From Phyllobates terribilis (taxonomy: Eukaryota), in contig NW_027362761.1 of the NCBI RefSeq assembly GCF_046119375.1, positions 322,028,001 to 322,092,000 on the forward strand: DNA of 64,000 bases, written 5' to 3'. The notes below the pieces were generated by a model. The model was given only the letters and a program-made list of their open reading frames with translations, was not told the DNA's origin and ran no database searches. This document shows, one piece after another, positions 8,079 to 37,620 of the stretch. The stretch's first letter is position 1, and each line of letters begins with the position of its first letter. Made by a program: the position numbers and the translations under genes.

Positions 8079-8329
8079 TGGGTAAAATCCGGCTGCCAGT
8101 GGTCCAGAGATGAGCAGGAGACAGGAATAATGGAAATGTGGTTTATTAGCCACCACGTTTTGAAGTGAACAAACTTCTTCATCAGAACAAACCGCAATGA
8201 GCAATGATGATTGTGGTTTCTTCTGATGAAGAAGTTTGTTCACTTCGAAAAGTGGTGGCTAATAAACCACATTCCCACTATTCCTGTCTCCTGCTCATCT
8301 CTGGACCATTGGCAGCCGGATTTTACCCA
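8079..8329. mobile_element. Inverted pair of Penelope-like pseudo-LTR ends, each arm carrying a degenerate hammerhead core followed by AATAAA
   Basis: Arms about 8079-8190 and 8219-8329. The + arm reads CTGATGA-A-GAAGT-ttgttc-ACTTC-GAAA-AGT (8223-8253). The - arm reads CTGATGA-A-GAAGT-ttgttc-ACTTC-AAAA-CGT (8185-8155). Confidence 0.65.
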
Positions 8330-8613
8330 ATTATTGCCAGCCTCCTGTTTTCATAATTATAAAGTAAGCATTTTGATGTCAGCATAGATGAAGAAAAACG
8401 TAAAAACTTGTAAAAATAACTGTTCTGGCAGTCTCCAGAAGGAGAAAGCCAATCGCCATGAAAAGCCTCTCACCCACTGAAGCCAGATGAGACTGGTTTT
8501 GGCAAATCAAGTGGCATTAGGGGCAGACATTAACTTCAGCTACCCTATATTGGTGACACTCGAAAGCCAGCTTTCATCCTCCTACAGCTAGCAGTCTCCT
8601 ACTGTGCCGATAA

Positions 8614-8815
8614 GTCCACGGCCCCACTATCAGTATTCGGTCAGTATTTTTTCTCAGGAGTAGGAGCCAAAACCAGGAGTGGGTGATAAGAGAAAAGGTA
8701 TAATAGAAACAAGTCACCAATTCTGCATTTATCACCCACTCCTGGTTTTGGCTCCCACTTCTGAGAAAAAATACTGACCGAATACTGACCAAATACTGAT
8801 AGTGGGGCTGTGGCC
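8614..8815. mobile_element. PIF/Harbinger-like palindromic MITE
   Basis: TAA flanks at 8611-13 and 8816-18. TIR GTCCACGGCCCCACTATCAG / CTGATAGTGGGGCTGTGGCC. Confidence 0.8.
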
Positions 8816-9706
8816 TAACTTCAACTAACAACTGACATTAAGAGTCAATCAACTATAGTCTCAAGAGGGAAAAAAAAGTCTGGCACATTCAAAAGTAATT
8901 AAAAGAAAATCATCTTTATTGATTAATCCATTAAATAGTTACTAATGTTGTGTGAATGTGAATATCAGAGTGTGTTTAACGTCAGAAATGCATCAGATGT
9001 TTACATTCGGACATGAGTAACATTTTAATGGAGCAATAAAGAAGAAGATTTGGTTTTAATTACCTGTGGATATGCCAGCCTTTTTTTTCTCTTTAGCCTA
9101 CAATATACTGCAATCCAGCAGTGACGCAGCACCCACAATAACCAGCAACGGAGGACTTTCATATACTGTACATGGGGAGACTAGCAATTGTTTATTTTTT
9201 ACCATCAACTGTGGTCTCCATGCCCATCACCACTTTAATTCCTAAGGGCCCATTTAGACAAGACAATAATTGGGAATGAGTGTTCCTAGGACTACATGTT
9301 ATCTAATCATCAGCCTTTCGGTGGCTATGTTCACACTGTGGAGGTCAAATACATTTTTTTTTTTTTTTTTTTTTTTGCTACAATAGTGACAAAATTGTAC
9401 ATTTTCCTACACTTTTCGAAAATTCATGGCAAAAATGAAGCAGTTTTACAGTGGGAATAGTTGCATCACAGCAGCAGTGTGAAATCAGAAATGATCCAAC
9501 AAGCTTGTACGCCAGGTTGAGAAGTTTTTAAGCAGCACATCATCCTGTGTAAACAAGGACTTATGATCAGAGAACACAATGGTCTAGGAGCACAGAACCA
9601 ATTAACGATTGTATTGTGGGCATACACGTGTGGTTGGCCATTGAATGATCACCAACTGGCCGTAGACAGCCTGTCTAACTGGGCCCTAATAAACTTGACA
9701 TTAAAG

Positions 9707-10072
9707 AGTGATGAAAGGGTAGTTATCCAGCAACTCGTGAAAGTGACTTATAAAATAGCCTTTATTTTGAAAAAATTAAAACCATGAGACCATAGTGCAA
9801 ATAAAAGCGTACAGTTTTCTGAGACTCTGGACTCATGTGTAATTGAGCATCTGAACAGGTGATGTCGGAGGGCGGCTACTTTCTCCATATGCCTTAAAAG
9901 TTTTTCCATTTCAACATTGTATTATGCTATGAATAAGGATCTACGTATCCGAAACGCGTAAGCCTCTGAACGCTTTTATTTGCACTATGGTCTCATGGTT
10001 TTAATTTTTTCAAAATAAAGGCTATTTTTTAAGTCACTTTCACAAGTTGCTGGTATCTACCCTTTCATCACT
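9707..10072 (+). mobile_element. Penelope-like end cassette: about 100-bp inverted arms enclosing a minimal hammerhead motif
   Basis: 9707-9810 is the reverse complement of 9970-10072, and the arm contains AATAAA. The hammerhead-like motif is at 9926-9963. Confidence 0.65.
9926..9963 (+). ncRNA. Variant minimal type I hammerhead ribozyme motif (A3-U8 pair, extra A after A9)
   Basis: GCT-ATGAATA-A-GGAT-ctacgt-ATCC-GAAA-CGCGT-A-AGC. Stem II is GGAT/ATCC, the palindromic ACGCGT forms stem III, the triplet is GUA and stem I is only 3 bp. Confidence 0.5.
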
Positions 10073-10189
10073 GCCTAATGTCTCCCAGACGGGGATCTTT
10101 ACAATCAGAGCACCGTGCCTCATGAGAAAGTGGACCGAGCAGGCTGACCCAGGTGAGCTGAAATATTTTTTCTACATTATTGACATTAA

Positions 10190-10559
10190 AGAGGTATTCC
10201 CATCTCCAAGATCATATCCCGATATATAGTAGGTGTAATATTAATAATGTTACCAAGTACCTCCAATTAGGAATGTAGTATAGTTCTTCAGATTTGCTAT
10301 GTTGCTTACCTCATGTATGGCATTGCAATAGCTTAGGTATCTGTATCTATGGTTACAACTGCTAAGAGCTGTCTAACTAAATGTCACTCTATGAATGGTT
10401 GTAACCATGGATACCTAAACTTCTGAAATGCCCTACATGAAGTAAGCGACAGCGAATCAGAAGAACTATACTACATTTCTAATTGGAGGTATTTGCTAAC
10501 ATTATTAATATTACACCTACTACATATTGGGATAGGATCTTGGAGATAGGAATACCCCT
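10190..10559. mobile_element. T2/Kolobok-like MITE
   Basis: TTAA TSD at 10186-89 and 10560-63. Long TIRs AGAGGTATTCCCATCTCCAAGATC / GATCTTGGAGATAGGAATACCCCT. Confidence 0.85.
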
Positions 10560-11454
10560 TTAATTTCTACCCCCATTATGTGTTGACTCGTGGCATGGAA
10601 CAGACAGAGCTAAATATAACCACATTCATACTAACATTTTTTTTTCTTTTATTACCATTAGGAATCTGACAGTAACAGGATATTCAAATGTAAAAAGTGA
10701 CTGTGCTCATTTAACAGCAAAGCTGACAAAATCCAGCAGGGACCCGAAATTCATCAGAGCCCCGTGTGTTTCTTGTCCTCTTTGTTGTGAAAGGACTGTG
10801 CTGAGGGGAGAATCTATACCTAGTGGAAGTGTGATCCATGTAATGCTTTATGTCAGCGTAAGGGATTTGCAGCAACCGCCGATAAATGATATGAAAATGA
10901 GCAGGGGAAAGGAAGCCTGGAGTGAAACATACACAAGGGAAGGGAGAAGGAATATGATTTACATCATAATGAGGAACACAAACTTGGAGCAGGGGACATG
11001 CAGTTTAACTATATAGTGATTAAGAATGACCTGAAACTGGAGGCCAGCAAAGACAATGAGAACAACCCATTTATTATTATGCAAGTGCTATTGTTGAAAC
11101 TATTACTTATATTCTTTAATATATCCTGTGTGCCATAGTACTAGTTCTATTCATATTGTCAGATATTCACCATCAATAGAACTGCTGCAAATGAAGAATA
11201 AGAGCTTCACACTGGCCAATAATTGGGAACGAAAGTATCCTATGTGCACAGAACAATTGTATTAATAATCGTTCTGGAAGTATGAGTGTGGTCAGACTGT
11301 CAAACGGGTTACGAAATGGCCGCTGATTGACTTACTGTACATGTAGGTTTCATTTAACGGCCACAGTCAGCCAGTGTATCATTGCTCTCACCAGAATATA
11401 CAGTTTGCACAGGACGGTGTGCAGCTGACAATTATTCGTTTTAAGTAAGCTTAA

Positions 11455-12674
11455 CCCCTTAATGAACCATTTTCAGCTTTTGTCTTTTTTCTTCCCAGAG
11501 CCATAACTTTTTATTTTTATGTCAATATTGCCATGTGAGGGCTTATTTTTTGTGGGACAAGTTGGACTTTCGAACGACATCACTGGTTTTACCATATCAT
11601 GTACTGGAAAACAGGAAAAAATTCCAACGGCGGTGAAATTGCAAAAAAAAGCGCAATTCCACAGGTTGTTGTTTTTTTTTTTTACCATGTTCACTGAATG
11701 CTAAAACTGACCTGCCATTATTATTCTCCAGGTCATTACGAGTTTGTAGACACCAAACATGTATAGGTTCTTTTTTTTATTTAAGTGGTGAAAAAAAAAT
11801 CCAATGTTTGCTATAATGGCGCCATTTTCTAAGATCTGTAGCGTCTCCATTTTTGAGATCTGGGGCCGGGTGAGGGCTTATTTTTTGCAGGCTGAACTGA
11901 TGTTTTTATTGATACCATTTTGAGGTACATCCGATGTTTTGATCCGCCGTTATTGCATTTTATTCCAATGTTGCAGTGACCATAAAAACGTAATTCTGGC
12001 ATTTAGAATTTTTTTCTCGTTACGCCGTTTACCGATCGGATTCATTCTTTTTTTACATTGATAGATCGGACGATCCTGAACGCGGTGATACCAAATATGT
12101 GTGCTTTTTTTTTATAGTTTTAATTCTGAATGGGGCTACAGAGGGGGTGATTTAAACTTAGTTTTTTATACATTTTTATTATTTATTTATTTTTTTACTT
12201 TTGCATGCTTCAATAGTCTTCATGGGAGACTAGAAGCTGCACTTATCTGATCGCCTCTGTTACACACAATGGATAATCAGATCGCCTGAGTGTAGCAGAT
12301 TTGCTCACTTGCTATGAGCGCCAACCGCTGGGCGGCGCTCAGCAATCTGGCAGTGACAACCACAGGGGTCTCCTACAGACCGTGGGTTGTCGTGCCAACC
12401 CATCGGTGACCCGCGATCATGTGACGGTGGGTGGGGCCAATGACGCGCTTCCCAGAAGAGCGGGTTAAATGCTGCTGTCAGAGATTGACAGCGGCATTTA
12501 ACTAGTTAACAGCCGAGGGTGGATCGCGATTCCACCTGCAGCTGTTGCGGGCACATGTCAGCTGTATAGATCAGCTGTCATGTGCCCAGAAAGGTGCAGG
12601 CTCAGCGTCAGAGACCGCACAACACAGGGGGTTATGACGTATGTCGTACTATTACGGCACACGTCATAAAGGGG
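11455..12674 (+). mobile_element. Non-autonomous piggyBac-like element (1.2 kb)
   Basis: TTAA-CCCCTT...AAGGGG-TTAA. Internal segments are shared with the elements at 39848 and 56293. No transposase. Confidence 0.85.
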
Positions 12675-15600
12675 TTAAAAATATATTTTCACCAAACCAG
12701 CATTTTGCTTGTTCATTGGGTGATTGGTGGCTTGTTTAGTCAGACTGATAATCGGGAAACGAGTGTTCCTAAGAATGCTCATTACTGTTCGGCAGCCAGT
12801 GTAAATGCATCCTTACTCATATGGCATGGTATCCCCCACATCACCACACTGTACAGACAAGTGTCTGGCGTGCAGAAATGAGCCCTTTGTATACTTTACT
12901 CTTCATCTGATACAGATTGTAAGCTCCTATATGTGCTGTATATTTTTCAGTATTATTGTTACTAATGTCCATGTACAGCCCTTACTGTACTGTGTGATAG
13001 AGCATGTTCCTTCTGTACTTTTTATGCACTGAATCAATGAGGGGGAATTTTAGTAATGGCTACATGCCAGTTTTCCAGCAAAGAAAATTGGCTATTTATG
13101 GCACATGCCCTATTTGCAAATAATTAGGAATTGTAGACCGTTTGTACTGCTCACACAAATTTGGTGAAAATGGGTTGGACTGCGGGCCTTTCAATTTACT
13201 ATAATTAATGCTAAAAATGTGTAAATTTTAGTAGAGATCTATTCCACCTCCTACTAAAAAATCAGGCCCATCTTATTCCAGCTAACCTCATGTGAACTGA
13301 AAAAAAGTCTCAAATTCCTCCCCATTGGGAGAAATCTGAGACTGGCTTGATTGGGGTTGATTTATGATCACTCCACAGGAGCGCACAGCTTCCCTGCATC
13401 CCAAATTCTTGCTTGCCAGGGGCAATGCGCTCTTGAAAACTGACATTTTGGACTGGTGGTATGGTTGTGTTGCCTGGCCAGAACAGTCGCTCTCCCATGC
13501 TGCAAGCAAAAGCAGGTTTTCCTCTTCAGCATCAGACTAGAGCTGGAGCACTGAAATTGGATGGATCTGGGGATAAAGCCAGCCTCGGGTGTTGAGCTTC
13601 TTACCTAAGAGATCAGCCACCTCTAATAGACTGCAGAAATGATCAGTTACCTAGACAATGAGCAGTAAACTGTAGAATTAAAACTCCCGTCTTGAGAATG
13701 GAGAGTGGTATTCATAAGTGGCAGGTTGGACGGTTACTCATATTTTTTAAGAACTTTGCAATTTTACCCATTTAAACAAGATGAGAATAAGCCTTTAAAG
13801 GATTAGTTCACACCGAGGCAATAGAGATATGTACCACTGGCACACTCTAAACATGGAGCTGTTGCTATGACCTAGGAGGCATTTAATGAAGCATGACAGT
13901 GTTTTCTGTTGGATATCCACTTCTGTATGGAATAAGAGCCATACGAAGGCAGAGAAGAGGCCTCATGCACATGTGCCCTATTATGGCCATATACAAAATG
14001 AAGCTGTAATACAGTTGTGATAAAAAGCCTTGAACATCTCTGTTACTTGATACAGCAGAAAGTGGATATCAAGCCACAATTACAAAAAAAGAAAACAAAA
14101 TATCAGTAGTTCTTTTTTTTTTCTTCCTTATGTTCACGCTACAAAAAGATACTGAAAATAAATCTTACCGAGGACATTAGGAAATGAAAAAGTATGCGCT
14201 CGACTGTACCGGTTTCAGTTATCAATGGTCAGGAAATGTCAGTGTGAATCAAAGCCAATTTAGTTTCTGACACCTCCTTTATCACAACAATCAAGCTGAC
14301 AGGTCAGGTTTCTGCTAACTGGGTAGGATATAATGATGTAAGTGAGGCTTCTACACCTCTACACTGCACTCTGGATACTCTAGATCTGGTCTATGCAGCT
14401 ACTTCCTGGCTACGTTACTTCCCTAAGGTGGTGTTCACACTAGAGGTCAGTGTGACATTCTCCTGCTTCACATTTTCAAATGTAAAAGAAAAAAAAAACC
14501 TTTGCAGTGACCAGATGTTACATGTACTGCAGACAGAACGATAAACCAGCTTGTAGTGGCCGCACGTGCAGAGCCGATGTGATGCCAGGTGAGAATTTAC
14601 AGCATGATATCAGTGGGGTTTTTTCTGCTCCAGTTTTGCTTGCAGATGTTGCTTCGCATGTGCCAAATGAGAGCCATTGCAATGTAATTTTAATCACAAA
14701 CAGAGCATGTCCTGTACGCAAGTGCAATGGAAAACATTATTGTTTTCCAGGAGGCAGAAAGGCAAGAACGTTCCGAGTGTAATGGGACAGAGAGAAGAGT
14801 AATGGAATCCAGGTGAGGAGGCGCGCGCCTCTGATTCCATCCATGATAACAGAGTAGTGGAAAACCACACTGCGCTCACAGGGCTGTGAAAATGATCCTT
14901 GTTAGGCAAGTGAAATACTTAAGAAGCCAGGAGCTCCTGCATTCCTCAGTGTTATTAATTGTTCACTTTCTCAGGCAGCCTGGAAGGCTCCTCAGTGGGA
15001 CTTCTAATGTTATAGTCACAGGATACTCTAGTGGGGGCTGTGGAGAGCAGCAATGCACAAGTCCAGGGCTTGTAACCACCACTCTGATTAATGTATCAGC
15101 GTTAGCAAATGGAGGAATTGTGGATGGAATAAATGGCTCTGGCTGTAATAGGAGGTATGTGGTGGAAAGGCCAAGGGTTTGGGCTGTAAACTTTGAAGAG
15201 GCCTTAATGTGAGCTGAAAAAGACTAGAAAAATGTACAATCCAAAGATACATCAACTTGGAGTTAATAGGGGGACGCCAAGAAATGGCCGCCTACTAGCT
15301 TAGTTTCCATACTCACCCCACCTCCCCAGCACGTCACAGGGCCCTTTGATGTGCAGTTCCCAGCCGGATCCCGAGCCTGCGCTGTTTCCTTTGTACGGAC
15401 GGTGCTCTTCTTCCTAATATTTAATGGCTACCTTAAATATTACAATTCTGGCTGATTTGTCTGAGATGAGACAACTTTGACTGACAGCCTGCTCTGCATA
15501 AGGGCCGAGGAGTAATTACAGCGTGCTCACGGTGTTGAGAGCGGTGACTAACAGCTCCCTGCACCACCCCCCTTTAAAGTGATTACTTATGAGGGCAATG

Positions 15601-15886
15601 ACAAATTATATATTTTCCGATGGCGGGGTAATCCAATTGTTAGTAAATTGTTTTGCTGTTTTATGCATATAACTATAAAAGATTTGTCAAATTTATATAA
15701 AATATCCCTAAATGTGATTAAAAGAACAAGTCATACAATCAAGTAATGGAATTCATTTATGCAATGTGCAGCCGCCAGGGTCCCGAGGGGGCCACTTCCA
15801 GTTTGTGCCCTTCTCTTTCTATGCATTGGATGTGATAACTTAGCAGCCCAGGAAACTCTTCTATGTCAAGCACAGGCCAGAAGTTC

Positions 15887-16137
15887 ATTTATTTATATTT
15901 ACTCCCTTATACAGCGCCATTAATTCCACAGCGCTTTACAAACATCAGCATCTCTGTCCCCAATGGGACTCCCTATCAGTATGGTTTTGGAGTGTGGAAG
16001 AAAACCGGAGAACCCAGAGGAAACCACGCAAACACGAGGAGAACATACAAACTCCTTGTAAACGTTGTCCTTGGTGGGATTTTAACCTAGGACCCTAGCA
16101 CTGCAAAGTGCTAATCAATGAGCCACCATGCTGCCCC
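15887..16137 (-). mobile_element. tRNA-derived SINE (V-SINE/SINE2-like) with an L2-type 3' tail
   Basis: The minus strand begins GGGCAGCATGGTGGCTCATTGATTAGC (box A-like) and has GGTTAAAATCC (box B-like), core GGAGTTTGTATGTTCTCC...GGTTTCCTCTGGGTTCTCCGGTTT and tail TGTAAAGCGCTGTGGAATTAATGGCGCTGTATAA...AAATAAAT. Confidence 0.85.
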
Positions 16138-16480
16138 GTGGTGCATGTCCTATGAATATGCCATGAGTGTATGAGATGGATATAGCCCTTTAAGGAAAAA
16201 ATGTTGGCATGGTTGAAACTGCACACTTTTACCACAATTTGCTGTGGTTTCCTTTGTGTTTTTTACAGTCATGACATGTAAAATAAATATAACTGCATCG
16301 AAAATCACATGCATTCCTTACTGGCAATGCAATCTTTTAATGCATACCAAGTCTCTTCAGAGAAAGTGAGGATACTAACTCTATTGCCACCAATTGGAAG
16401 TAGCAATCTAAAAGTCAATATTTAACCTTTTAAAGGGTTTACCACATGACTTATGATAAGAAACCAAGCCAGGAACTCAA

Positions 16481-16526
16481 TTTGCAGACACGCGTTTCGG
16501 GGTGTTTGCCGCTCATCAATGCAAAG
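16481..16526 (-). ncRNA. Minimal type I hammerhead ribozyme motif (Penelope-associated type)
   Basis: Minus strand CTTTGCA-TTGATGA-GCGG-caaaca-CCCC-GAAA-C-gcgt-G-TC-TGCAAA. It has a 6-bp stem I, a GUC triplet, a C3U change and one stem II mismatch. Confidence 0.7.
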
Positions 16527-16879
16527 CAGGAGAGAACTGGTTTGGTTGGGTGGGAGACCTAAGCATACACTTCTTGGCGCCTCTCTCACAGGAAAACATG
16601 TTTATTATATCTACAGTCACAACCCTGTGATCATAACCTTAAATGAGACAGCTATTAAAATTTGGTAAAAAGGAAAAGAAAAAAAAAGAGCCTATCCTAA
16701 ATATAGGCGTTCAATACTTTGATTTCAGTCGTAGGGGTGTGATCCTCGCATTCATTCAGGGCTGGCGCCGCCCATGCATTTGGATTCTGCTCCTGGCTTG
16801 CGCTCTAAGTATGGGGCGCTTGTGCAGTATGTCATGGCCAGCCAGAAGCTTGCAGCACAGGGAGCCGCGCATGCGCTGT

Positions 16880-18403
16880 GACGAGCGGCACGCAGGAATG
16901 CTTGCGCTCTTCAGTGTCTCTGAAGGATGGCATGCTGGATGGCAGCGTTCTGCTACCATCCAGCCTGCCATCTCAATGCCGTTCCAGCGTGGGAGAATTC
17001 TCCTGCTCAAGCAGTGACTTCATTTGCCGGCACCGCATGCGCAGGAGAATTCTCCCACGCTGTCAGTGACGTGCATGAGGTGAGCTGAATTCATTGGACA
17101 TGAACGCGGCTCATCTGGATGCCGTCACAGCCAGACACTGAGGAGCTTCTCAGTGTCTGCGGCATGGCAAGCTGGATGGCAGCGTTCTGCTGCGATCCAG
17201 CCTGTCATGTGAATGTAGCAGAGCTGGAGAATTCGTCGGAACCATGGAAAGGTAAGGATGATGTTGCTTTATTATTTTACTTTTATTGCAGGAGATCGTT
17301 GGCTTCAGCTGGAATGGGCGTGACGGTAAGTAGAGTTTAATTTAGAAAATTAAAGAATTGTGTCTATTTCAATTAAAGGACTTTATTCTGGGTGTCTTTT
17401 TTTAAACTTTCACTATGGGGTTAGTAATGGGGGGTGTCGTATAGACGCCTCTCCATTACTAACCTGGGCTTGATGTCAGCTGGCATTATAAGCTGACATC
17501 AACCCCAACCCTATTACCCCACTGCCACCGCTACAGGGCAGTGGGAAGAGCGAGGCTAAGTGCCAGAATTGGCGCATCCTATGGATGCTCCATTTCTGGG
17601 GCGGCTGACGGCTGGTGTTTCTAGCCTGGGAGGGGCCAATATTCATGGCACCCTTCCTGGGCTATTAATATCAGCCCCCAGCTGTCTGCCTAGCCTTTGC
17701 TAGCTATTAAAATAGGAGGGATCCCAAGTCATTTTTTTTGGAGTCCCCCATTTTAATAGCTAGTAAAGGCTAGGTATTCAGCTGGGGGCTGATATTAGTA
17801 GCATGGGAAGCTCCGTGGGTATTACCCCCTTCCCAGGCTACAAACATCTGCCCCAGCCGTCTTCTTAACCTCCGCTAGAGACTAAAATTACGTGGAACCC
17901 CACGCCAATTTTTTTTTTTAATAAATCCTTTATTTTAACACTAAATGACAAGTACAGTAACCAACACTGTCACTGTACTTATTATATATGTGGCTGACAT
18001 GTTTATATCTATCTAATCTATGTGTGATGCTCTATTCTTTCTGTTCTAAATTGTCGGGTACCAGTGTATGCCGCTGATGAATTGCCGGCCAGCTTTTTTA
18101 AAGAGATGGGTGCATGAAAATCGGAGGGCACTAGTGTGTTCCAAGTGCCCTGCTATGTTTTTCATGCACCCTCCTATATACCCTGCCTGCCTGTCTGCCT
18201 ATATATTCTGCCTGCTTGACGTTTAATTGAGCACTGTTCCCATCGATTTGAGCAATTTTTGACCTTCTGCAGACCGCCAGAAAAATGCTCGAGTTTCCCA
18301 TAGACTTACATTGGGCTCGTTGCTCGGGACGAGCACCCGAGTATTCCAATGTGCTCGACCCGAGCTTCGAGCACCCGAGCATTTTAGTGCTCGCTCATAA
18401 CTA
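16880..18403 (-). mobile_element. Second, inverted and partial copy of the composite repeat at the window start
   Basis: 17110-17500 matches the reverse complement of 1-420, and 17500-17950 matches the reverse complement of about 1980-2400. It ends in a GTGCTCGCTCATAAC-TA terminus with GCTCGAGC/GAGCACCCGAG units. Confidence 0.7.
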
Positions 18404-19570
18404 CTTATTATACAATGAGGACGGCTGTAATCACTAACCGATACTTTGTCGGACAGCCTGCTCTGCACACACAAGGGCTGAGGAGTAATTACAGCGTGCT
18501 CACGGTGTTGAGAGCCGTGACTGTAACAGCTCCCTGCACCGCCCCGATGGCATTTTCTCTGTACTTCCTAACTCTGCCAGACACGATTTGCATGCTATTT
18601 ACCTGCAGATTAACCCTGGTGGTGAATGGCTAAATAAAGGTCTTAGGTTATGCTATATGTTTTCTGGCTCCCATTATAATACAAGTAAAGGGATGTGAAG
18701 CTCTTTATTTAACTAGCAGCTACAGAACAATCTCCAGACAATTCATAAAAGAAGAGCGATTGTGTGTTCAGCCAGACTTGAAAGCTTACAGCTTTTGCTG
18801 TTTAGTTAGCTGCTATTAAATGTATTACTTTTAAATCACTTGTATTCCTTTTCTCATTAAAAGAGCTTCTTATAGGCAATACCCAGTATGTGATGGGCAA
18901 ATGACAGTGAGAATTACGGCTCTATTTACCCCAGCTTGTCATGTGTGCTGTACCTTCCACTTTGATTAATAACGCGATAAGTATCACTTTATACCATATT
19001 GCACACTTGCTTCTAGATGTAACAAGCTATAATGATGACAAAGAAGAGGAAAACTGCTGCTTTCATCTATTATTTTTATTCACAAAGTGAGCTTTTGTGT
19101 TTGACTTCTCTAGTTTGAGGTGCTAAGCCACTGATCTCTGTGCTAGGATTACAGTTTGGAGAGGAGCCATGAGAATGGCCTCAAGTGAACTGCGCCCGGG
19201 GTCCTGTTGTGATCACCGCCTTTCCCTTGAGTTAGTAGATATAATTGAAACGTCTGGGGTTTTTATTGGCAGGACAGACACATACGAATGTCCTCCTGTA
19301 ATTGTGCAAAACATCACTACTTTTATTCCAAAGCAGCAGAAAAGTGGTGAAAAAGACACAAGCAAACAGACTTTCTATTAAAGGCCGTGGACCCGATTCA
19401 TGAAGGTGTTTGCCAGTTGTCTGGCATAAGACATTCAAACCCCACAAAATTTTTGCCATTTTTACAACAGTCCCAGCCAGTTTAGCCAAAATAGGTGGAG
19501 CATGGGCAGGACGGGGCGCGGCTAAGTCTGGCCTTTTAATTCATTACTTTACGCACTACATCTTTCCAGA

Positions 19571-19730
19571 AATAATAATAATAATATTTATACAGCGCCA
19601 ACATGTTCTGCAGCACTTTACAATTAAGCGGGAACATGTACAGACAATAAAAACTATACAAAGTAAAACATAGCTCAATAGTTAAAGGAGGAGCCGAGGG
19701 CCCTGCTCACAAGCAAACAGTCTATAAGGA
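19571..19730 (-). mobile_element. L2-type LINE/SINE 3' end with (TAT)n tail
   Basis: (ATA)n followed by TTTATACAGCGCCAACATGTTCTGCAGCACTTTACAAT, the reverse complement of the typical L2 tail. Confidence 0.65.
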
Positions 19731-26089: not shown

Positions 26090-28065
26090 TTAAGAGTGTA
26101 TCGAGACAACCCCAACTGGCAACATCCAGTAAATTTCTAGTAAGGATAACAGAGGAATAGCAAAGCTGAGTTCTCAGAAATGATTATCCAGAATTGTCAT
26201 ATTAATGGGAATGAAAGTATTTACTAAAACAGACATGACAGAGGTGGTGACAGATTCTTTGTAATGCACTTTTAAATGAGCAAAAATCAGGCATGTCAGA
26301 GCACTAATGACCAAGGATACAGACTAATAGCTTTATGTAAATAGGTGAAGTGACTGATTAGCTGGAGACCAAACCATGAATTTAGAAGGGTTATTTAAAC
26401 TATAAAGTATAAGGTCTATAATAATCCCATGAAGTCACGTACAGCGGTCATATCAACAATCACCAGATACAACTTTATGCTCGTGTAAATGGGCATTTAG
26501 ACAAAGGAGAATGTGTCTGAACTGCTGCTCGGCATGACATTTCCACATTGGCTTTATCATCACAATATGATAAAACATTACTTCTACTAATAATGATACA
26601 TATTGGATAGAGTAATAGAGCTTTAAATTTAATAAGGTCACTAATTACAGTAAAAAAAAAATTAAGGGGATTATCCATCTGATCAAAATTATTCTAGAAA
26701 GCTTTCATTGTTCTACAAGAATAAAATAAACCGTACTGAACTACTGCTGCCCAGCCATCTCTACCCCCACTAGTATTACCGACACATGACCACTGCAGCC
26801 AATCAATAGGAATACTACTAGCATCACCACAAGGAAATTGTGATGCCTGTCTGCATGTAAACAAAAATAATCAGTGCTGCAGATATTAGAGACAGAACAG
26901 TATGCAAGTTATTTTACACTTATTATTTTAAGCCAGATAATATGGTACAACAGCTAAAAGCTACAGTATTACACATAGAAATACAGATTGAAAATACTGC
27001 TAAGCCAAAGCAAGCAGCAGGTCCAAAGCATGGAAGAAGTGCAAATCTTTCCACTATACTTTCTCTGCGTATGTTTCATTGCTGGTTTTGACTTACAAAT
27101 AGTGATGCAAAATATTGATAAAACTGCTACTGTGAGAAAGTGGCCTCGGTCTACTGACACGCAACCATTCACATAATAGATAAACCGCCAAAACAAAACG
27201 GCTATGCTTCTACTATGCGTGCCCTGCAGGTTACGCAGAGCCCATCTCACCTTCTCAAATATGCAGAGGTCTGCCTTTCTTTCAGGATTTCTTTCAGAGC
27301 CAAGGAAAAATAAGGCAAAGCAATTTCCTGATTGGAAATAGGAAATTAGCTTTGGAACAAATTCAGGAGCTGCGCTGCACATAGCTCAACATAAAATTAG
27401 AAACAGAAGTTTAATTGAAAGATCGTGAATATTTTGAGAGTCTGATAGGTTGCACTTGGTATGAGGAAAGAATGTGAATTCCTCCGGGACTAAGAGAATT
27501 ATAGAGCTTAGCCACACTAAATCCAGCAGGGTTAAATCTATCAGATGGCTGCACTAACTTGGCTTGTCAGATAACTAAAGAAACAAAAAAGCCCAATACG
27601 ACAATTGTTTCCTCATTAATTTCTTTTTAGAACAATAGTAATATGATAATATAAGTATGGAAATTACCCAATAATAGCACCAATTGCATATAATAAGCCA
27701 TGAGCATATCAACATCACATGTGCACCAGTGATCAAGTCCAAGAGTTTAGGGAGCAATCTGAAGATCAGAAGTGTAAGCATATAAAGGATTGCTGAGATT
27801 AGAAAACCCCAGTTGCTTCCTATGTACTGTATCTGGTACTGCTGCTCAGCCCCATTCACATACAAGCAGTTGCGGTTTCCTAATGTTACATAAACCCTTT
27901 TAATTGAGTTAAAGTAGCCAATACTAAATTAATGCACAATCCTAGACATTAACGTTTGGGTCAGAAAAAAACTCATTAAAAAAAGCAACACTGATGACAT
28001 GTTCTCAAATTCTGTTAAGAAGGATCCGATATTAGATTTCTTAATATCAACTGTATACATTTTTA

Positions 28066-28972
28066 GGCTATGTGCCCACGTTGCGGAAATGCTGCATATT
28101 TTTTACGCTTCTCCCTGGCAGGAAAAACGCATGCGGTTTTTACATGCGTTTTTCCCGCCAGGTAGAAGCGTTTGTCAAGCGTTTTTGCATGTATTTCCGC
28201 ATGCGGGTTATCAAGCGCTTTTCCGAGCGATTTTAGCATCACTTGGAAAAGTGCTTGACAACTTGTTCACACTATATAAATCCATGCAAGCCGCATGGAT
28301 TTATAGTAGTGTGACCAAGTTACTTAAAAAAAAAGAATAAGAATGGTAAAAATTAATAAAAATAAAGTTTATACTCACCTTCCGATGTCTTCCCGGTGTT
28401 TTGTCTGCTCCATTCGGTGTCTTGCACTGCTTGCGATGGTGTGAAGGACCTGCGGTGACGTCATTGAGCCATGTGATGGGTCACATGACTCGGTGACGTC
28501 ATGGCAGGTCCTTCACATCAACGCGAACATTGCAAGACACTGGACGGAGCAGACAAAACACCGGGAAGACATCGGAAGGTGAGTGTAAACTTTATTTTTT
28601 ATTATAAATTATTTTTTTTACAGTTTCTATGGTACCCAGGTCTGGATGAGAGTCTCCCCTCCTCCAGACTTGGGTACCATCCGCACATAGAAACGCATAA
28701 TATCCGTGTGTACAAATGTACTGACACGGATATTATGCGTTTCAATGCAAGTCAACGGCAGCGATTACGCTGCGTGTCCGCAAAATTAATGGACATGCTG
28801 CGGATTTTTGAGCGCAGCATAAACGCTGCGGAAAAATCCGCAACATGGGCATTGACATTGCGGCTTGTCATTGGGGACCATGGGGGGCGGATTACCAAGC
28901 GTTTCCCAAGCGTTTATGCTGCGGAAATTAAGCAGCATAAACGTTTGTAAAACGCTACGTGGGCACTCAGCC
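28066..28972. mobile_element. PIF/Harbinger-like MITE (about 900 bp) with an internal hairpin core
   Basis: TTA TSD at 28063-65 and 28973-75. TIR GGCTATGTGCCCACG / CGTGGGCACTCAGCC. TGACGTCA at 28456 and 28494. Confidence 0.88.
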
Positions 28973-29753
28973 TTAAATAGATCTCTAAACCTGATGAAGC
29001 TGGTGAATTTACTTAAAAATCCATGGCAGAATGGTTGTGTAATCCTAATATTAAAATTAGCATTTTATGTTTCGGCCTGATGAGCTCTTGATATCAAGTG
29101 TATTCTATCTCCACCAAGCAAACCTGACTGACAGCTGCATCTTGTACTGAGCAGTGCGACATTTCATCAACAGCAGGAGGATGAAGGGACGCTGAGCGGC
29201 TGTCACTCAGGCCAGGTGGGTGCAGACTGAGCTACACTTTCATGAAAAATTATACAGTAAATCTGACATTGATATTTCAACTAATTCATAAGAGGATGTG
29301 AATCTGGTGAGTGACTACTTTTACTGGTGGGGAAGAAAATAAAGAAGTCTTTAGACCATTGCTCCTACATGTCAGTCCTGGAGTCACCCTTCCCCAAAGG
29401 TCACATTGTCAGGATTTCCTTACTACTACACAGGTGATGTAATAATGGTCAGTGAATCAGAAATTGCCATGGGTTATCTGCAGGAAGGTCTATTGTAGGA
29501 CATGATCGATGGGTCTCTGTCCGTCATAGCAGAGCTACTGGGTCATAGACTCCGGTGTGCTATGCCAAGTGACTTCTGTCACTACAAGTAGCGGTTTTCC
29601 CCTGTAACTGGGGCTCCTATGGATGTCCCAATTACAGTGGAAAAAATGAGAGATAAATACAAGTAAATTATATTCCTTCATATCTTTTATGATCTCTTGG
29701 GGATATATTGTATTGTGCAAAAGTTTTAGGCAAGTGTGAAAAAAATGCTGTAA

Positions 29754-32607
29754 GGGTATGTGCACACGATGCAGAAATGAAGCAGAAAATTTCTGCATCA
29801 TTTCTGCATCTCCCTGGCAGAAAAAACGCATGCAGATTGTGCATGCGTTTTTCCTGCAGAATACATGCGGATCCACATGCAGATTCACATGCGTTTCCGC
29901 ATGCAGATTGACAAGCGCTTTCCAGGCGATTTTAGCATCACCTGGAAAGTGCTTGACAACTAGGTCACACTGTATAAATCCATGCAAACGGCATGGATTT
30001 ATATAGTGTGACCCGAGAGAGTGTATATACTTACCTCCGATGGCCCGCGCTGTCCTGCATTACAAAGTTCCCGGCTGCCGGCAACTTTGAATTGAAAGAC
30101 CTGCCGACGTCAGCGTCACGTGACCCGTCACATGACTCTGACGTCAGCGCAGGTCCTACAACTCACTGCAAGTGCCGGGAACCAAGCGGGAGCGCTGCGC
30201 GGGCCGACAGAAGGTAAGTATACATTTATTTTTTATTTTATTCTTTTTTTACAACTTTTTTAATGGTACCTGGGTGTGGATGAGACTCTCCTCCACACTC
30301 GGGTACCATCCGCATATTAGAACGCGCCAATAGCGCAAGTACAGATGCTGTCTTGCGGAATTGGCGCGTTCTAACGCAAGTCAATGGCGGCGAAATCGCC
30401 GCGTTTCTGCAAAATTAATTGACATGCTGCGGATTTTTGACCGCAGCGTTCACGCTGCGGAAAAATCCGCATCATGGGCACAGCACATGCGGATTTCCAT
30501 TGGGTAACATTGCTGCCCTTCTACCATGCGTTTTTCATGCGTTTCCGCGGCGTTTACGCAACTGCAAAAACGCCGCGGAAACGCATGAAATACGCATCGT
30601 GTGAACTCAGCCTAAGGCTGTGTGCCCACGTAGCATTTTTCAAGCGTATATGCTGCGGAATTTCCGCAGCGTAAACGCTTGAAAAACGCATGTATATCCG
30701 CACCCCATGGTCCCCAATGGGATTCCGCAAGTTCTATGCACATGCTGCGGATTTTTCCGCAGCGTTTAGGCCGCGTTCAAAAATCCGCAGCATGTCATTT
30801 AATTTTGCGTTTCCGCAAGCGGAATTGCCTTTGTCCAATGCATAAAAAACGCAAGGCAATTCTGCATGTGGAAAACGCGTGATAAACGCGCGAAAAATGC
30901 GCGATAAACGCGTGCGGAATTCCGCATGCGTTTTTCCGGGAGAGGACTTGCATTTATGCAGCAGAAATTTTCTGCTTCATAAATGCAACGTGGGCACATA
31001 GCCTAAAAGTAAGAATTCTTTCCAAAATAGAAGTGTAAGGCTATGTGCCCACGTTGCGGACCTGAAGCATATTTTTTACGCTTCTCCCTGGCGGGAAAAT
31101 CGCATGCGGATATTACATGCGGTTTTCCCGCCAGGTAGAAGCGTTTGTGAGGCGTCTTTGCATGCATTTCCGCATGCGGGTTATCAAGCACTTCTCCAAG
31201 CATCACTTGGAAAAGTGCTTGACAACTTGTTCAGAATGGTAAAAAATAAAAAAATAAACTTTATACTCACCTTCTGATGCATTCTCTGCCCCGTCCGGAG
31301 GCTTGAGCGGCTCACGCTGTTGTGTGCAGGACCTGCGGTGACGTCATTGAGTCATGTGGTGGGTCACATGACTCAATGACGTGGCAGGTCCTTCAGACAA
31401 CAGCGCGACGGAGGGAAAACATCAGAAGATAAGTATAAACTTTATTTTATTCTTTTTTTTACAGGTTCTTTGGTACCCAGGTCTGGATGAGAGTCTCCTC
31501 TCATCCAGACTTGGGTACCATCCGCACATTGATTCCGCTGCGTTTCCGCAAAATTAATGAACATGCTGCGGATTTTTGACCGCAGCATATACGCTGCGGA
31601 AAAATCCGCAGCATGGGCATTGACATTGCGGAATGCCATTGGGCACCATGGGGTGCGGATATACATGCATTTTTCAAGCGTTTACGCTGCGGAAATTCCG
31701 CAGCATATACGCTTGAAAAACGCTACGTGGGCACACAGCCTTAGGCTGAGTTCACACGATGCGTATTTCATGCGATTCCGCGGCGTTTTTGCAGTTGCGT
31801 AAACGCCGCGGAAACGCATGAAAAACGCATGGTAGAAGGGCAGCAATGTTACCCAATGGAAATCCGCATGTGCTGTGCCCATGATGCGGATTTTTCCGCA
31901 GCGTGAACGCTGCGGTCAAAAATCCGCAGCATGTCAATTAATTTTGCGGAAACGCGGCGATTTCGCCGCCATTGACTTGCATTAGAACGCGCCAATTCCG
32001 CAAGACAGCATCTGTACTTGCGCTATTGGCGCGTTCTAATATGCGGATGGTACCCGGGTGTGGAGGAGAGGAGAGTCTCCTCCACACCCAGGTACCATTA
32101 AAAAAGCTGTAAAAAAAGAATAAAATAAAAAATAAATGTATTCTTACCATCTGTCGGCCCGCGCAGCGCTCCCGCTTGGTTCCCGGCACTTGCAGTGAGT
32201 TGTAGGACCTGCGCTGACGTCAGAGTCATGTGACGGGTCACGTGACGCTGACGTCGGCAGGTCTTTCAATTCAAAGTTGCCGGCAGCCGGGAACTTTGTA
32301 AAGCAGGACAGCGCGGGCCATCGGAGGTAAGTATATACACTCTCTCGGGTCACACTATATAAATCCATGCTATTTGCATGGATTTATATAGTGTGACCTA
32401 GTTGTCAAGCACTTTCCAGGTGATGCTAAAATCGCCTGGAAAGCGCTTGTCAATCTGCATGCGGAAACGCATGTGAATCTGCATGTGGATCCGCATGTAT
32501 TCTGCAGGAAAAACGCATGCACAATCTGCATGCGTTTTTTCTGCCAGGGAGATGCAGAAATGATGCAGAAATTTTCTGCTTCATTTCTGCATCGTGTGCA
32601 CATACCC
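29754..32607. mobile_element. Palindromic cluster of four Harbinger-like MITEs: X1 29754-30612, X2 30616-31003, X3 31039-31740, X4 31744-32607
   Basis: Each unit is bounded by TAA/TTA. X4 is a near-identical inverted copy of X1. The X1/X2 junction is mirrored by the X3/X4 junction. Confidence 0.9.
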
Positions 32608-32922
32608 TTAATAGGCTATGAATTAATAGAATGCAAAGTGAATGAAAAACAAAGAAATTAAATCAAATCAATATTTGCATGAACTCAGAACAGCCAGCAA
32701 CCAGTGGCACCCAGATACACCCATCCACTGTTTGGAGAAGTTTGGACAGAAGTGGTCTTCATGGAAGAAGCCAGAAAGCCAGACCTTTAATATAGAAACA
32801 AGGCCATGTGACTCCTCTATACACAAAAACTTAGGAACTGGGGTGCAGAAAATGGAAACAGGTGCACTGGATTAATGAGTCTAAATATCAAATATTTGCC
32901 TGTAACAGAAGGAATTTTATTC

Positions 32923-33234
32923 CAGGGCTGTGGAGTTGGAGTCGGTGTCCATTTTGGTAGAATAGGTATAAAATGGACCGACTCCGAAATTATATAATAA
33001 ATAGGGTACAGTAGTTCAAAGCAGTATGTGCGGTAAATTTTTTCATAAGAATTTGGGAAAGTTAAGAAATGTCCTATAAATTTCCGTTCTGTTCCTGATC
33101 CAAGGATCTCACCTTTTAGTTGAGATTAATCTGTGCTGCACTTTATTTACATGCTCAGTAGTGAGGGAGTGCTGTGGAGTCGTGGTCGGAGTCAGGGAAA
33201 TTAAGGAGTCGGAGGTTTTGACTCCACAGCCCTG
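32923..33234. mobile_element. hAT-like MITE
   Basis: CAGGGCTGTGGAGT...ACTCCACAGCCCTG. TSD TTTTATTC/ATTTATTC (7 of 8). Confidence 0.88.
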
Positions 33235-33488
33235 ATTTATTCTCCGAATAGCTGGAGTGTGGTCTAATGATGAGTGTTTGTAGATAACAGTGAAACAGGG
33301 TGGATAATCCCTGCAAGTGTATGGCAGCATTTCAAAAACCTGAGTTGGGGATTTCAGAAGGATTAATGGTGTCTTCAATACTGAGAAATACAAGTAGATA
33401 CTTAGCCATCATGAAATACAAATCAGAGGCATCTGATTTATTCCAAATGTATTCTGCAGCAGGATAATGACCTCAAACTTACAGCCAA

Positions 33489-33960
33489 TTTTTTTTTTTT
33501 TTTTAAACAGCCTCTGGCTTGATCTCGAGCCATGACAACTTTATGGATGAATAATCTGTAGGAAGATCAATCTTGTGCAGCCTAGATAGGTCCACGAGGG
33601 TCTTCTTCACCATTATCTTGATTGTTTAATACTATCGAGTTGCTGGTCTTCCTCTTCGCCATGTTCCTTCTATTCTGCCGGCCATGATGTCCTTCTCCAG
33701 TGATTGCCCTAATCGTATGTGTCCAAATTAGCTTTGTGACCCTTGCTTTGAGGGACATGTCTGGCTTCATTTGTTCCAAAATTGATTTGTTTGTTCTTCT
33801 TATCATCCATGATATTGATAACATCCTTCTCCAGCACCACATTTCAAAAGGCGTTGATTATTCTTCTGTCTTGTTTCTTCATCGTCCAGGTTTAGAATCC
33901 ATAGGTTACCACAGAAAAGACCAAACTATGTATGAGCAGTGTCTTAGGTGCCAGTGAAAT
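33489..33960 (-). mobile_element. RTE-clade LINE 3' fragment (BovB-related clade) with poly(A) tail
   Basis: Minus-strand translation FEMWCWRRMLSISW..RRTNKSILEQMKPDMSL and, after a frameshift, LEKDIMAGRIEGTWRRGRPATR, which is the typical RTE ORF C-terminus. The T-run at 33489-33504 is the tail. Confidence 0.85.
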
Positions 33961-33974
33961 ATTCCTCGATTAAG

Positions 33975-34198
33975 ACCCATCTTCAGTGTAAAGAAGAACA
34001 AAGATTCCTGGAACTGATAATATGGTCCCCACAGATCCCTGATCTCAACATTATCGAGTCTGTCTGAGATTACATGAAGAGACAGAATGATTTGCGCAAG
34101 CCTAGCTCCACAGAAGATTTGTGTTTAGCTATCCAAAATATTTGGAAAATATTTGGAACAACCTCGCGGGAGAGTTCCTTCAAAAACTGTTTTCAATG
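33975..34198 (+). pseudogene. Tc1-like transposase C-terminal remnant
   Basis: WSPQIPDLNIIESV*DYMKRQ...EDLCLAIQNIW resembles the WPxQSPDLNxIE motif. Confidence 0.75.
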
Positions 34199-34199
34199 A

Positions 34200-34597
34200 C
34201 GAGCAGAGACCTTAATCTGCGCATGCGCCACCTCCGGCACCATTTTCCTGAAGCCCACTGCCAGGAGATCAATGTGCGTAGTGGGGACTCCTGCCTCGCA
34301 CCACCAACATTTTCCTGAAGCCCACCACTGGAAGATCAATGGATCCTACCTTGCACCAACGGGACACCCCCCTCCTCCCAGTCTAGGGCCCGCAGCCGCT
34401 GGCTTCCTGTAGCGATGACCCTGCTCCTGCCTCCCGTGACCCCGCTCCACCACAGCGGTCCCCCTAAGTAAGCTAAATTTAGACTATAATATAGACCCCC
34501 ATTTTCACATTAAAAATTATTCTTTATTCCCTACTTTCCTCCTCTAAATTTGGGGTGCGTCTTATTATCCGGTGCGTCTTCTAGTCCGAAAAACACG
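34200..34597. mobile_element. Non-autonomous DNA-element fragment with a TcMar-like terminus
   Basis: Ends GGTGCGTCTTCTAGTCCGAAAAACACG. Internal short direct repeats CACCATTTTCCTGAAGCCCAC. The other end was not found. Confidence 0.45.
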
Positions 34598-36993
34598 ATA
34601 ACACAAAACGCATCCACATAACCATTGAAACCTTGAGAATTCATTCAACAGTATATAAAAACTGCACAGTAATTTTTTCGTAACCCAAAACATCATCTCT
34701 AAAAATCAATACAATTTGTCCCACATAAAACATAGCCACATTAATGAAAAAGAGGAGAGGTAAAAAACTAAAATAAACATGGCTTGTCATTCAAGCCCAT
34801 TCAGTTCTGGTCACTATGGGGTTAAATACAAATTTATATTATATACAAATTGGATCAAATTAAACATATCTTTATAAATAATTGCATACTAAATTATAGA
34901 ATCAGGCCAGTAATTCAGCATGATCAAAATGGTTGACATTTCACCATATTGATTGCAAATATGTCCCAACATGAGAACCACAGAACGGCACAGAGATAGG
35001 TTAGAGAAGCATAATTCATGACCGAGAATAGAGATGAATTATAATTTTTCAATGATAGGAGCGTACAATGGTTATTACTAAAGAAACGGCAGATCGTAAG
35101 TGCTACAGGTCAAATATAGAATTAAACCCTTGCTTTTTTTTGGAGGGGGGGTGGGAATTTTAGTCCATGCAGGCTAGTTAGTACTTTTGAGTGAAACACA
35201 CATGCTAGCTGTATCTAATTCCGATCCATACAATCTATGTAATACTGTACAGAATCACCACCGGAGATGGCCACAGCTATATCAACCTGCGAACACGAAG
35301 GCATCCTGCAGGAAGTGAAGTGTGTGCGCTTCTACTGTTTTCAATGGAGTCTGCACTATTGAACAATGAATAACACGGGAAATCACTTCATAAACCGCTA
35401 TAGTGATCAGAAATGGAGGAAACTGTTGTAGACAGAAACAGTAGATTATAGATGAGGGGATGATGATCGGCAAAATAATCTGTTTGTTTATCCATCATCT
35501 GGACAAGTAGGTGTGAGAGTCAATCAAAACGACAGTATAAAATGCACTATTCAAAAAAGGCACAATGGAGAATGACAATACATAACATGTAGATACAATA
35601 CATAACATGTTCACAAGCAAAGTGCATTCGCCTGTAACATACTCAGCCCCTCCTCACATGTGTGCCCCTTATTTTGCCTCAGCAGCGGTGCTTATATTAG
35701 CAGCAGTGAAAGAAGTCTACAGTTGTCAGCCTGAGCCTGGGACTGGGACCTACTCCAGACAAGAACTGAAAAATGAGCTTCTGGGCCTGAAGTCAGAAAC
35801 TCAGAAAAGTCCTTCTGTCCTGGAAATGCCTAAAATTTTGTTTATTTTCCTTTACAGGTCACAAATCAAATCCTTTTTTTTATCTGTCTGGCAGCAAGTT
35901 AGTGGCTAGCACCATTAAAGGATTTCAAAGTGAATGAGTCTATAGGCACAGGCTAATTAAATCCTAATTGTAAATTAACACTAAAAACATTACTTCAATA
36001 AGTGCCCTTGAAATATATCATATCATGAAAGAACTAAAACTCAAGCTCAGGGACAAACTTATTAAATCAAATAGAAAAGCTATAATCTAATTTATCTTTA
36101 AGATTTTATCGATCTACATAAAGAACTAATCATTACACATCCAATTATGTATGTGAGATTGGGATATTGTGTGACTGGCTGTATCATATACAGACAGGAT
36201 TCAGAAACTTATCTGATGGGAAATAAAACAGAGCTATGGAAGTGAAGGGGTGAGGTGATATTCCTAAACAGAATAAACTTTCCATTGAGTAATCTGGCGG
36301 AAGCCCCAACCTCATCCATATAACATCATTCAGCTAATGTAAATAGTATGGGGAATATTTCAAGTTCTTTCAAGTGCATCTGTAAATATTATCATTCACT
36401 TCTTTACGTCAGACCGCTTTCATTTTAGTATAACTGGCACGTTATGAAAGATACAACTATTTATGTTCCTAGTACAAATAAAGCAGGCATTAAAGTGCCT
36501 GAGGTGATCTTTTAAGGGATACAGTTGGTCATAGATATTAGATTTACTATCTGGTCCCTCCAGATTTAGAATATCCTTGGCATCTGACAAATTACTAACC
36601 AGGAGAATTAAAGGGTAACTAAACGTTCAAGTACATTTTCAGAATATGTGGTCATATAGGAATAACAGCATTCCTTGCCATTATCTGACTTGTATCCTGC
36701 ACGGTTACCATTTTTCATATCTGCTGCCTCGGTCTGTTAATTTGCAATTGACTCTAAGCTGGTGGGAGCAACTAGCTGCTGTGCCCTCTCACATTTACAT
36801 AGAAATGGATTCCTGCTCTTCATTCATATTTTAGCACACAGAGAGAAGAAGCAGCATGGACGACAATATATAGCAGTACTGAACAGTGTAGCTGAGAAAC
36901 CATCTCTGTAATAAAATATTTATTACAAAGCTCATCACAAACGGTTTCTCCCTCTACTTTTTTTTTTTTTCCACTTTGCTCCTTGCTCCTTAA

Positions 36994-37368
36994 GAGTGCT
37001 TTCACATTGCGCTTAGTGACACGTTCGTGGGTCCCATTGAGGCTCGCGTCCAACCCCCCCCCCACAAAACGGGATTCTGACTTATGCGCCGAAGGACCCA
37101 TAGACTATAATGGTGCCGGCAGAGCAAACACGCCCTTTGCCATGCATCATTTTTGGGCGTAAATGCATACTAGAGGCAGACACATTCTACTACGCCCGAG
37201 TGTCCGTCTCCAGAAAGTGTACACGCCCAAAAATGATGCACGGCAGAGCGCACGCTCACTCTGCCGGCACCACTATAGTCTATGTCCCCATCGGCATACA
37301 AGTCAGAATCCTGTTTTGCAGGATGGGGGTTTGTACGTATGGCCCCACGGGGCCACCAAGAGCATAGC
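36994..37368. mobile_element. Palindromic MITE (Harbinger-like), decayed
   Basis: Inverted arms CCATAGACTATAATGGTGCCGGCAGAG / CTCTGCCGGCACCACTATAGTCTATG, with TAA flanks. Confidence 0.6.
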
Positions 37369-37380
37369 TAAAAGCAATGT

Positions 37381-37620
37381 GCAAGAATAGAAGGAAAGGC
37401 AGCACACACCCAGTCTTCGTTAAAACGTTCCTTTATTTTTGTGTGCAGGACAAGTTGAAGCGCCGGAAGGCAGCGAAACGGCCATTGTCCCTTTTTACCT
37501 CTCCCCCGCATACCCTTCGGGGTCTCAGTCCAATGCTGCACGCTGAAATGCTCCGCACACAAAAATAAAGGAACGTTTTAACGAAGACTGGGTGAGTGCT
37601 GCCTTTCCTTCTATTCTTGC
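37381..37620 (+). mobile_element. Penelope-like end cassette: 66-bp inverted arms enclosing a degenerate hammerhead motif
   Basis: 37381-37446 is the reverse complement of 37555-37620, and the arm contains AATAAA. Motif GGAC-AAGTTGAA-GCGCC-ggaa-GGCAGC-GAAAC-GGCC-AT-T-GTCC at 37448-37490. Confidence 0.5.

Follow-up and report, generated by a model that had tools for sequence, protein, structure and literature searches.

Inverted hammerhead cassettes of Phyllobates terribilis as probable single insertions of Penelope-like element ends

The window analysed here, a 64,000-nt stretch of the 10.6-Gb genome of Phyllobates terribilis (positions are window coordinates), contains three short cassettes that combine hammerhead-like motifs with inverted arms, and a fourth hammerhead at 16481. 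The aligned arms lie at 8062-8198/8210-8346 in cassette 1, 9697-9814/9966-10082 in cassette 2 and 37381-37446/37555-37620 in cassette 3, with about 90-98% complementarity over the three cassettes, and all of them carry AATAAA or TTTATT (8142, 8261, 9761, 9800, 9975, 10014, 37432 and 37564). These alignments, together with a longest match of no more than 14 nt among the three cassettes and the 16481 unit, bear out an earlier note, made from the sequence alone, that had described mutually unrelated cassettes with AATAAA in their inverted arms. The same build is indeed present in all three, but the units are longer than the 240-370 bp given there, which missed a one-sided tail outside the arms and a target-site duplication (TSD) around arms and tail together (14, 14 and 16 bp; Table 1). 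Since the TSD encloses the whole unit, each cassette is one insertion and its arms are not terminal repeats. We consider it quite probable that the cassettes are single insertions of the hammerhead-bearing end (pseudo-long terminal repeat, pLTR) of Penelope-like elements (PLEs), with a tailed and a short arm placed head to head within a 14-16-bp TSD, likely through one priming event on each nicked strand.

Hammerhead-like motifs were located at 8185 (minus strand), 8223 (plus), 9929 (plus), about 37454 (plus) and 16519 (minus). They are thus seen in all three cassettes, as the note had it, but a strict minimal type I descriptor is matched in the window by the 9929 motif only, with 0 matches among 30 shuffled sequences at 0-1 deviations, and the remaining motifs are decayed or variant. 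The 9929 copy, from family 2 (families are numbered after their cassettes), shows 0 deviations with an A3-U8 core pair and has the core, helix II, a palindromic helix III and helix I. The A3-U8 pair is found in 47/47 family 2 copies tallied (window 9929-9935). Family 3 has the core CCGUUGAA (U4C, A6U) in 18/18 copies, with a bulged helix II and a GGAA loop (for example L020:1497-1545, minus), and in cassette 3 itself the 5′ strand of helix I is made up of junction filler and does not belong to the family sequence. An Rfam scan of the window returned no hammerhead family and only sub-threshold microRNA (miRNA) hairpin matches, over cassette 1.

Table 1. Positions of the cassette parts and of the fourth hammerhead in the window
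Feature	Position	Strand	Remarks
Cassette 1 TSD, left copy	7879-7892	.	14 bp
Cassette 1 tailed arm	7893-8200	-	Starts 15 nt before hammerhead core 8185 (G12 lost); order hammerhead core, AATAAA, arm, tail; GT donor-like site at 7985
Cassette 1 tail	7893-8061		~165 nt
Cassette 1 junction filler	8201-8209	.	9 nt
Cassette 1 short (tail-less) arm	8210-8346	+	Starts 13 nt before decayed core 8223; AATAAA 8261
Cassette 1 TSD, right copy	8345-8358	.	
Cassette 2 TSD, left copy	9695-9708	.	14 bp
Cassette 2 short inverted arm	9707-9814	-	Family coordinates -117 to -10; 2-nt overlap at joint
Cassette 2 tailed arm, putative Neptune-type PLE	9813-10179	+	Starts at -270, upstream of promoter-like motifs; TATA-like TTAAAAG 9894, likely start 9924, then AATAAA
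Cassette 2 minimal type I hammerhead	9926-9963	+	A3-U8 core pair; predicted cut between 9960 and 9961
Cassette 2 tail	10083-10179		~100 nt
Cassette 2 TSD, right copy	10180-10193	.	
Cassette 3 TSD, left copy	37369-37384	.	16 bp; last 4 nt common to arm end
Cassette 3 short inverted arm	37381-37446	-	Family coordinates -65 to 0
Cassette 3 junction filler	37447-37453	.	7 nt
Cassette 3 tailed arm, second putative Neptune-type PLE	37454-37744	+	Starts at -166, inside hammerhead core; predicted cut before 37487; AATAAA 37564
Cassette 3 tail	37621-37744		~125 nt
Cassette 3 TSD, right copy	37745-37760	.	
Decayed solo fragment of ~315-nt tandem hammerhead repeat	16354-16560	-	Core 16519; without inverted arm

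No PLE coding sequence was found in the window by tblastn, as the earlier note had stated for the cassettes; in families 2 and 3, by contrast, longer copies do run into coding sequence. Searches of the same genome (30 loci per family initially) recovered copies that extend upstream through a T-rich 3′ untranslated region into a reverse transcriptase (RT), a CxxC-type linker and a GIY-YIG end. The motifs DKG, YVDD/FIDD and VVY..C.C..YIG were read in the translations, the RT being followed by a C-terminal GIY-YIG with CCHH cysteines. The most informative locus of family 3, L264, is a complete partial tandem of pLTR, body and pLTR of ~3.8 kb with a 646-aa frame; its upstream pLTR starts at -219 and passes through the tail directly into the body, and the downstream pLTR follows the frame. 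For family 2 the downstream pLTR alone was recovered. The inverted layout also occurs with coding arms of kilobase length (L265, L267, L337 and L355). Both families are 96-98% identical to the ends of coding copies. The linker reads CGHCSFC in family 3 and CGQRQCGLC in family 2, the two proteins being 27% identical, and the part of PMC8557442 drawn on here gives CX2-5CxxC as the linker between RT and endonuclease (EN) in the Neptune clade. Cassettes 2 and 3 are therefore the ends of two PLEs, putatively of Neptune type, a call made from the linker. Of the two possibilities raised in the earlier note, severely truncated Penelope insertions are supported for these two cassettes by the RT and GIY-YIG regions of longer copies, and partner elements with the same termini are at hand (L264 as the parent in family 3), whereas a separate short non-autonomous ribozyme class finds no support for sequences that are ends of coding elements.

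The two arms of an insertion are coupled in a regular manner. Among 68 pairs of arms lying within 700 nt (40 in family 2, 28 in family 3), 66 combine one tailed and one short arm (39/40 and 27/28), none has two tails, and the two exceptions end at +20/+21. The arms end at one of two fixed 3′ sites. A TSD of at least 9 bp surrounds 32/40 family 2 and 27/28 family 3 pairs (controls 2/40 and 1/28), its length ranging over 9-20 bp and mostly 14-16. In 13/40 and 13/28 pairs it is the tail-less arm that extends further 5′, by at least 5 nt, so that neither arm can have been copied from its partner in these. For family 2, three end points account for all longer arms: the start window described below (19 pairs), the hammerhead cut or the next base (10), and positions beyond -216 (11). 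Moreover, where one family 2 arm lies at the cut its partner does not pass the cut in 10/11 cases (permutation mean 3.8, p 3e-5). The longer arm falls in the start window in 24/28 family 3 pairs, a figure inflated by the query used. A rank correlation between the 5′ ends of the two arms was not significant.

For the distribution of 5′ ends, arms were sampled solely by an exact 26-27-nt motif located 3′ of the predicted cut. The motif has 132 matches genome-wide in family 2 and 222 in family 3, and the figures come from the first 100 of each, with duplicates collapsed by flank, alignment to real long copies and coordinates counted from the cassette arm end. Among the matches listed, family 2 gave 94 unique arms out of 107, of which 31 are longer than 250 nt, 10 start at -250 to -162, 34 at -161 to -148 (13 of them at -159) and 19 further downstream; 8 of these 19 start exactly at -122, the predicted cut (first base after GUA; solo copies 5/10). 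The corresponding set of family 3 holds 76 unique arms out of 83: 23 long, 1 at -250 to -180, 32 at -179 to -166 (7 at -178/-177) and 20 further downstream, including 4 exactly at the cut at -133 (solo copies 3/11). A second family 2 set, drawn from matches not among the first 100, has 8/18 ends at -122 (solo copies 3/7), so that both sets pooled give 16/37 downstream ends at -122 and none at -123/-124. Five family 2 ends called -113 really lie at about -116/-117, owing to a reference variant. The earlier note would have been refuted by copies that were all random-length 3′ fragments of full-length Penelope elements; instead, their lengths cluster at two RNA landmarks.

The upstream edges of both families lie 30 nt behind TTAAAAG or TTTAAAAG, and that of family 3 falls on an Inr-like (initiator-like) TTACTTT; from these motifs, the edge is likely the transcription start. 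In the window, both arms of cassette 1 are at the start edge, the tailed arm of cassette 3 is in the start window and cassette 2 has a longer truncated arm. None of the three starts at the hammerhead cut, and the cut-site evidence thus comes from sister copies. Splicing was discarded as a cause of the upstream edge: families 1-3 show no AG ahead of it, and none of the 3′ ends falls at a donor-like site. A putative cap-templated extra G was seen in 4/7 family 3 copies at -177 and in none of family 2, and was not used as evidence. In family 2 loci starting at -159 the preceding base is mostly C where long copies have T, which fits micro-inversions overlapping at AT. In addition, one region (G000:C3:50931935-52975047) holds at least 26 same-strand family 3 motif matches 50-190 kb apart and is a large segmental tandem array carrying one insertion.

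Family 1 is older, with about 80% identity. Its arms start within 22 nt before the hammerhead core in 36/49 cases, and 22/23 pairs, read by eye, combine a tailed and a short arm. Four loci reach 350-500 nt upstream into a common T-rich stretch, and TATTTATA is found about 30 nt before the start edge in the upstream-extended loci. The exact family 1 motif has 8 matches only, too few for a census. At L136:1376-1773 (minus), a family 1 unit follows partial repeats and is itself directly followed by the last 30 codons of a Neptune-like open reading frame (ORF); this locus is a possible internally deleted family 1 parent. Cassette 1 is likely a truncated Penelope insertion that arose like cassettes 2 and 3, from an older family. 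For this cassette, whose build is that of the other two, the proposal of a separate ribozyme class keeps a limited standing, no parent ORF having been found in the loci searched.

These regularities could be produced in a single reaction. The endonuclease would make a staggered cut about 15 bp apart, and the RT would start at two internal sites of the RNA, one for each target strand (twin priming). Each cDNA would then run toward the 5′ end of the RNA, set either at the transcription start, which lies a few bases ahead of the hammerhead, or at the hammerhead cut, and would run off at this capped or self-cleaved end. The two cDNAs would finally be joined through a 0-5 nt overlap or a short filler. 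Either the 5′ pLTR of a full-length RNA or a short RNA from any promoter-retaining copy may serve as template, and what both strands share may be a single RNA molecule or a hammerhead dimer. Start-site copies, which lack the TATA-like box, are likely dead by-products and not a self-propagating class. The sister copies starting at the predicted cut suggest that the ribozyme likely works in living cells. With somewhat less assurance than for the insertion layout, we lean towards the fuller account in which germ-line PLE RNA is cut by the minimal hammerhead, including its A3-U8 form, the cut RNA can still be inserted, and the head-to-head arrangement comes from one complex that primes both strands, with two different RT start sites in use and a common RNA 5′ end.

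In twin priming of L1 elements, both target strands prime cDNA synthesis, giving an inversion inside one TSD, with each cDNA covering its own part of the RNA; here, in contrast, both cover the same RNA end and start at two fixed sites. Dimer-cleaving hammerhead variants of PLEs have reportedly been described in 2017. In the literature searched, with supplements and subscription papers outside its scope, we found no PLE copy ends mapped to a hammerhead cut and no twin priming in PLEs.

The layout of the element is already published and no new element class is involved. The sections of PMC8557442 drawn on here describe the insertion unit of EN+ PLEs as a 5′-truncated copy with an adjacent inverted 5′-truncated copy, a one-sided tail and a TSD, and the same layout is given for Pen2a_Av in the corresponding part of PMC3846280. 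The cassettes resemble that unit in layout, whole-unit TSD, TATA-/Inr-like pLTR motifs and the existence of solo pLTRs, and differ in being reduced to the pLTR and in tails of 100-165 nt against the 30-40 published. The two-site clustering of 5′ ends and the coupling of the arms shown here are absent from these accounts, as far as the sections drawn on extend, and the formation of inverted insertions is named as a next task in PMC8557442. Pairs of minimal hammerheads on opposite strands, 100-700 bp apart, have been attributed to truncated PLEs (PMC4209133, in the portion drawn on here), and cassette 1 is such a pair. The minimal type I motif is alike, with an extra base before helix II and a palindromic helix III; that paper reports U3-A8, whereas family 2 has A3-U8 and family 3 its own core, and according to the same portion in vivo cleavage evidence is lacking. 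Finally, the Poseidon protein of Anolis (PAc) was found in vitro to cut and extend both strands, with RT starting at two internal sites, by which the tail is defined, and with a predicted dimer (PMC11167929, as covered in the part drawn on here). PAc is of another clade than families 2 and 3, and that part leaves inverted insertions unexplained.

Several points weigh against our account. Self-cleavage is judged here from the genomic distribution of copy ends. Contigs from sequencing runs, four of eight examined, gave neither usable ends nor splice joints. The family 3 cut-site peak consists of 4 copies, 0/28 family 3 pairs end at the cut, and only 1/49 family 1 arms do (2 within 3 nt, in a biased sample). 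The family 3 core is non-canonical and its minimum free energy (MFE) structure is another fold. Among the second family 2 set, 4/18 arms, 2 of them at the cut, had been seen earlier, leaving 6/14 for the unseen ones. The start-site windows were drawn after the data had been seen, the promoter motifs amount to no more than consensus matches, a uniform background underlies the P values, and the pair sets include loci from queries favouring longer arms. In most solo short copies no duplication is seen (one of at least 10 bp in 9/36 and 5/25). As for the parents, Nematis also has a linker like that of Neptune, and the 646-aa frame had no Pfam match at E 0.01, a sub-region giving a weak RVT_1 match at E 0.012, below the cut-off; a PDB search with the same frame gave no match at E 1. 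No parent ORF of family 1 was found in the extended loci or in an L040-based search (4 places, none coding). In addition, PAc did not need cleavage in vitro, and no RNA-seq ends lay at the cut, in the part of PMC11167929 drawn on here.

The most serious alternative, which we nevertheless hold to be unlikely, is random 5′ truncation, with peaks caused by RT stalling at the hammerhead structure or by microhomology at the joint and not by RNA ends. Both peaks do lie at edges of the folded motif, an AG overlap is common to several inverted joints at -122, T precedes 7/8 solo copies at -122, and an RT that stopped just ahead of helix III would be a single base away from the cut. The main edge, however, is found beyond the structure, on its 5′ side. 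Solo copies (5/10 and 3/7 in family 2, 3/11 in family 3) peak at the cut as well, and family 2 has no ends at -123/-124 while partner arms keep the same limit in 10/11 cases. Still less probable is that the short ribozyme retroelements form a non-autonomous class apart, with master copies of their own. This reading could draw on the 36/49 family 1 arms starting just before the core in a family with no ORF found, and on the excess of short over long copies in all families. Against this stand the 96-98% identity of families 2 and 3 to the ends of coding copies, the missing TATA-like box of the short copies, the four family 1 loci extending into a shared T-rich stretch, and the lack of head-to-tail monomer arrays in the loci of all three families (30 each for families 2 and 3).

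Self-priming, or snap-back copying of the first strand, would also give an inverted arm, and self-priming on an antisense template is proposed in PMC3846280, in the part drawn on here. Palindromic joints with a 0-5 nt overlap are common, and micro-inversions of a few bases precede many "solo" copies; yet strict pairing of a tailed with a short arm is not expected from snap-back, and the pairs in which the tail-less arm reaches further 5′ (13/40 and 13/28) largely refute it there. We regard this origin of the arm as very unlikely, and such copying could still add short filler. Miniature inverted-repeat transposable elements (MITEs) with the terminal inverted repeats of DNA transposons, which the earlier note had kept in view as an explanation of the arms with constant TSDs, would account for the fixed outer arm ends and for little else: arm length is variable, the tail lies outside the arm on one side only, the TSD is not constant but varies over 9-20 bp, and the parents encode RT. 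The MITE reading is thus refuted for practical purposes.

The fourth hammerhead belongs to another kind of element. The motif at 16481 has neither inverted arms nor AATAAA, so that it does not share the architecture of the cassettes, but the retrozyme-like character raised in the note does apply here, as the motif comes from a head-to-tail family of ~315-nt units. The 315-nt period is seen in L099, 10/29 distinct loci are longer than one unit, and the type I core is intact in 12/17 copies tallied. No ORF was found in the unit, and tblastn gave no match to PLE proteins. Two 3′ sites, at about +175-185 and +232-239 relative to the core, are preferred by copies of this family (L091-L120), and an inverted copy lies alongside in 10/29 distinct loci. 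The unit contains the octamer ATTTGCAT, presumably the one of the snRNA-type (small nuclear RNA-type) promoter of newt satellite 2. In its unit length, head-to-tail order, intact core and lack of an ORF the family is like the non-LTR retrozymes of animals, from which cassettes 1-3 differ in not being tandem monomers. Judged by these traits, it is a non-LTR retrozyme with apparent PLE-type insertion marks, probably moved by PLE enzymes. Animal non-LTR retrozymes are described in PMC7229834, and a PLE origin of retrozymes is proposed in bioRxiv 10.64898/2026.07.22.740005 (both as far as the parts drawn on here extend); the inverted copies and two fixed 3′ ends are structural, and not only phylogenetic, support for mobilisation of retrozymes by PLEs.

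If the account given above is true, the transposition reaction has left its record in the genome in the form of short PLE cassettes. Mapping the ends of short copies needs no data other than a genome, yields base-exact, testable predictions on in vivo cleavage and on inverted insertions, and is applicable to any PLE-rich assembly. Hairpins of this kind should be annotated as PLE stubs, not as MITEs or miRNA precursors.

Other repeats of the window include RNase H and integrase-like frames at 51107-53187 (plus), from a pol of the LTR-retroelement or endogenous-retrovirus type broken into two frames, and a fragment at 55347-55964 (minus) that we take, from its motif, to be a Tc1/mariner-like transposase. 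Finally, nested palindromic repeat families at 28063-32610, 62154-63105, 95-1005 and 57107-57888, with arms of up to 543 nt at 99% identity, are MITE-like and unrelated to the cassettes.

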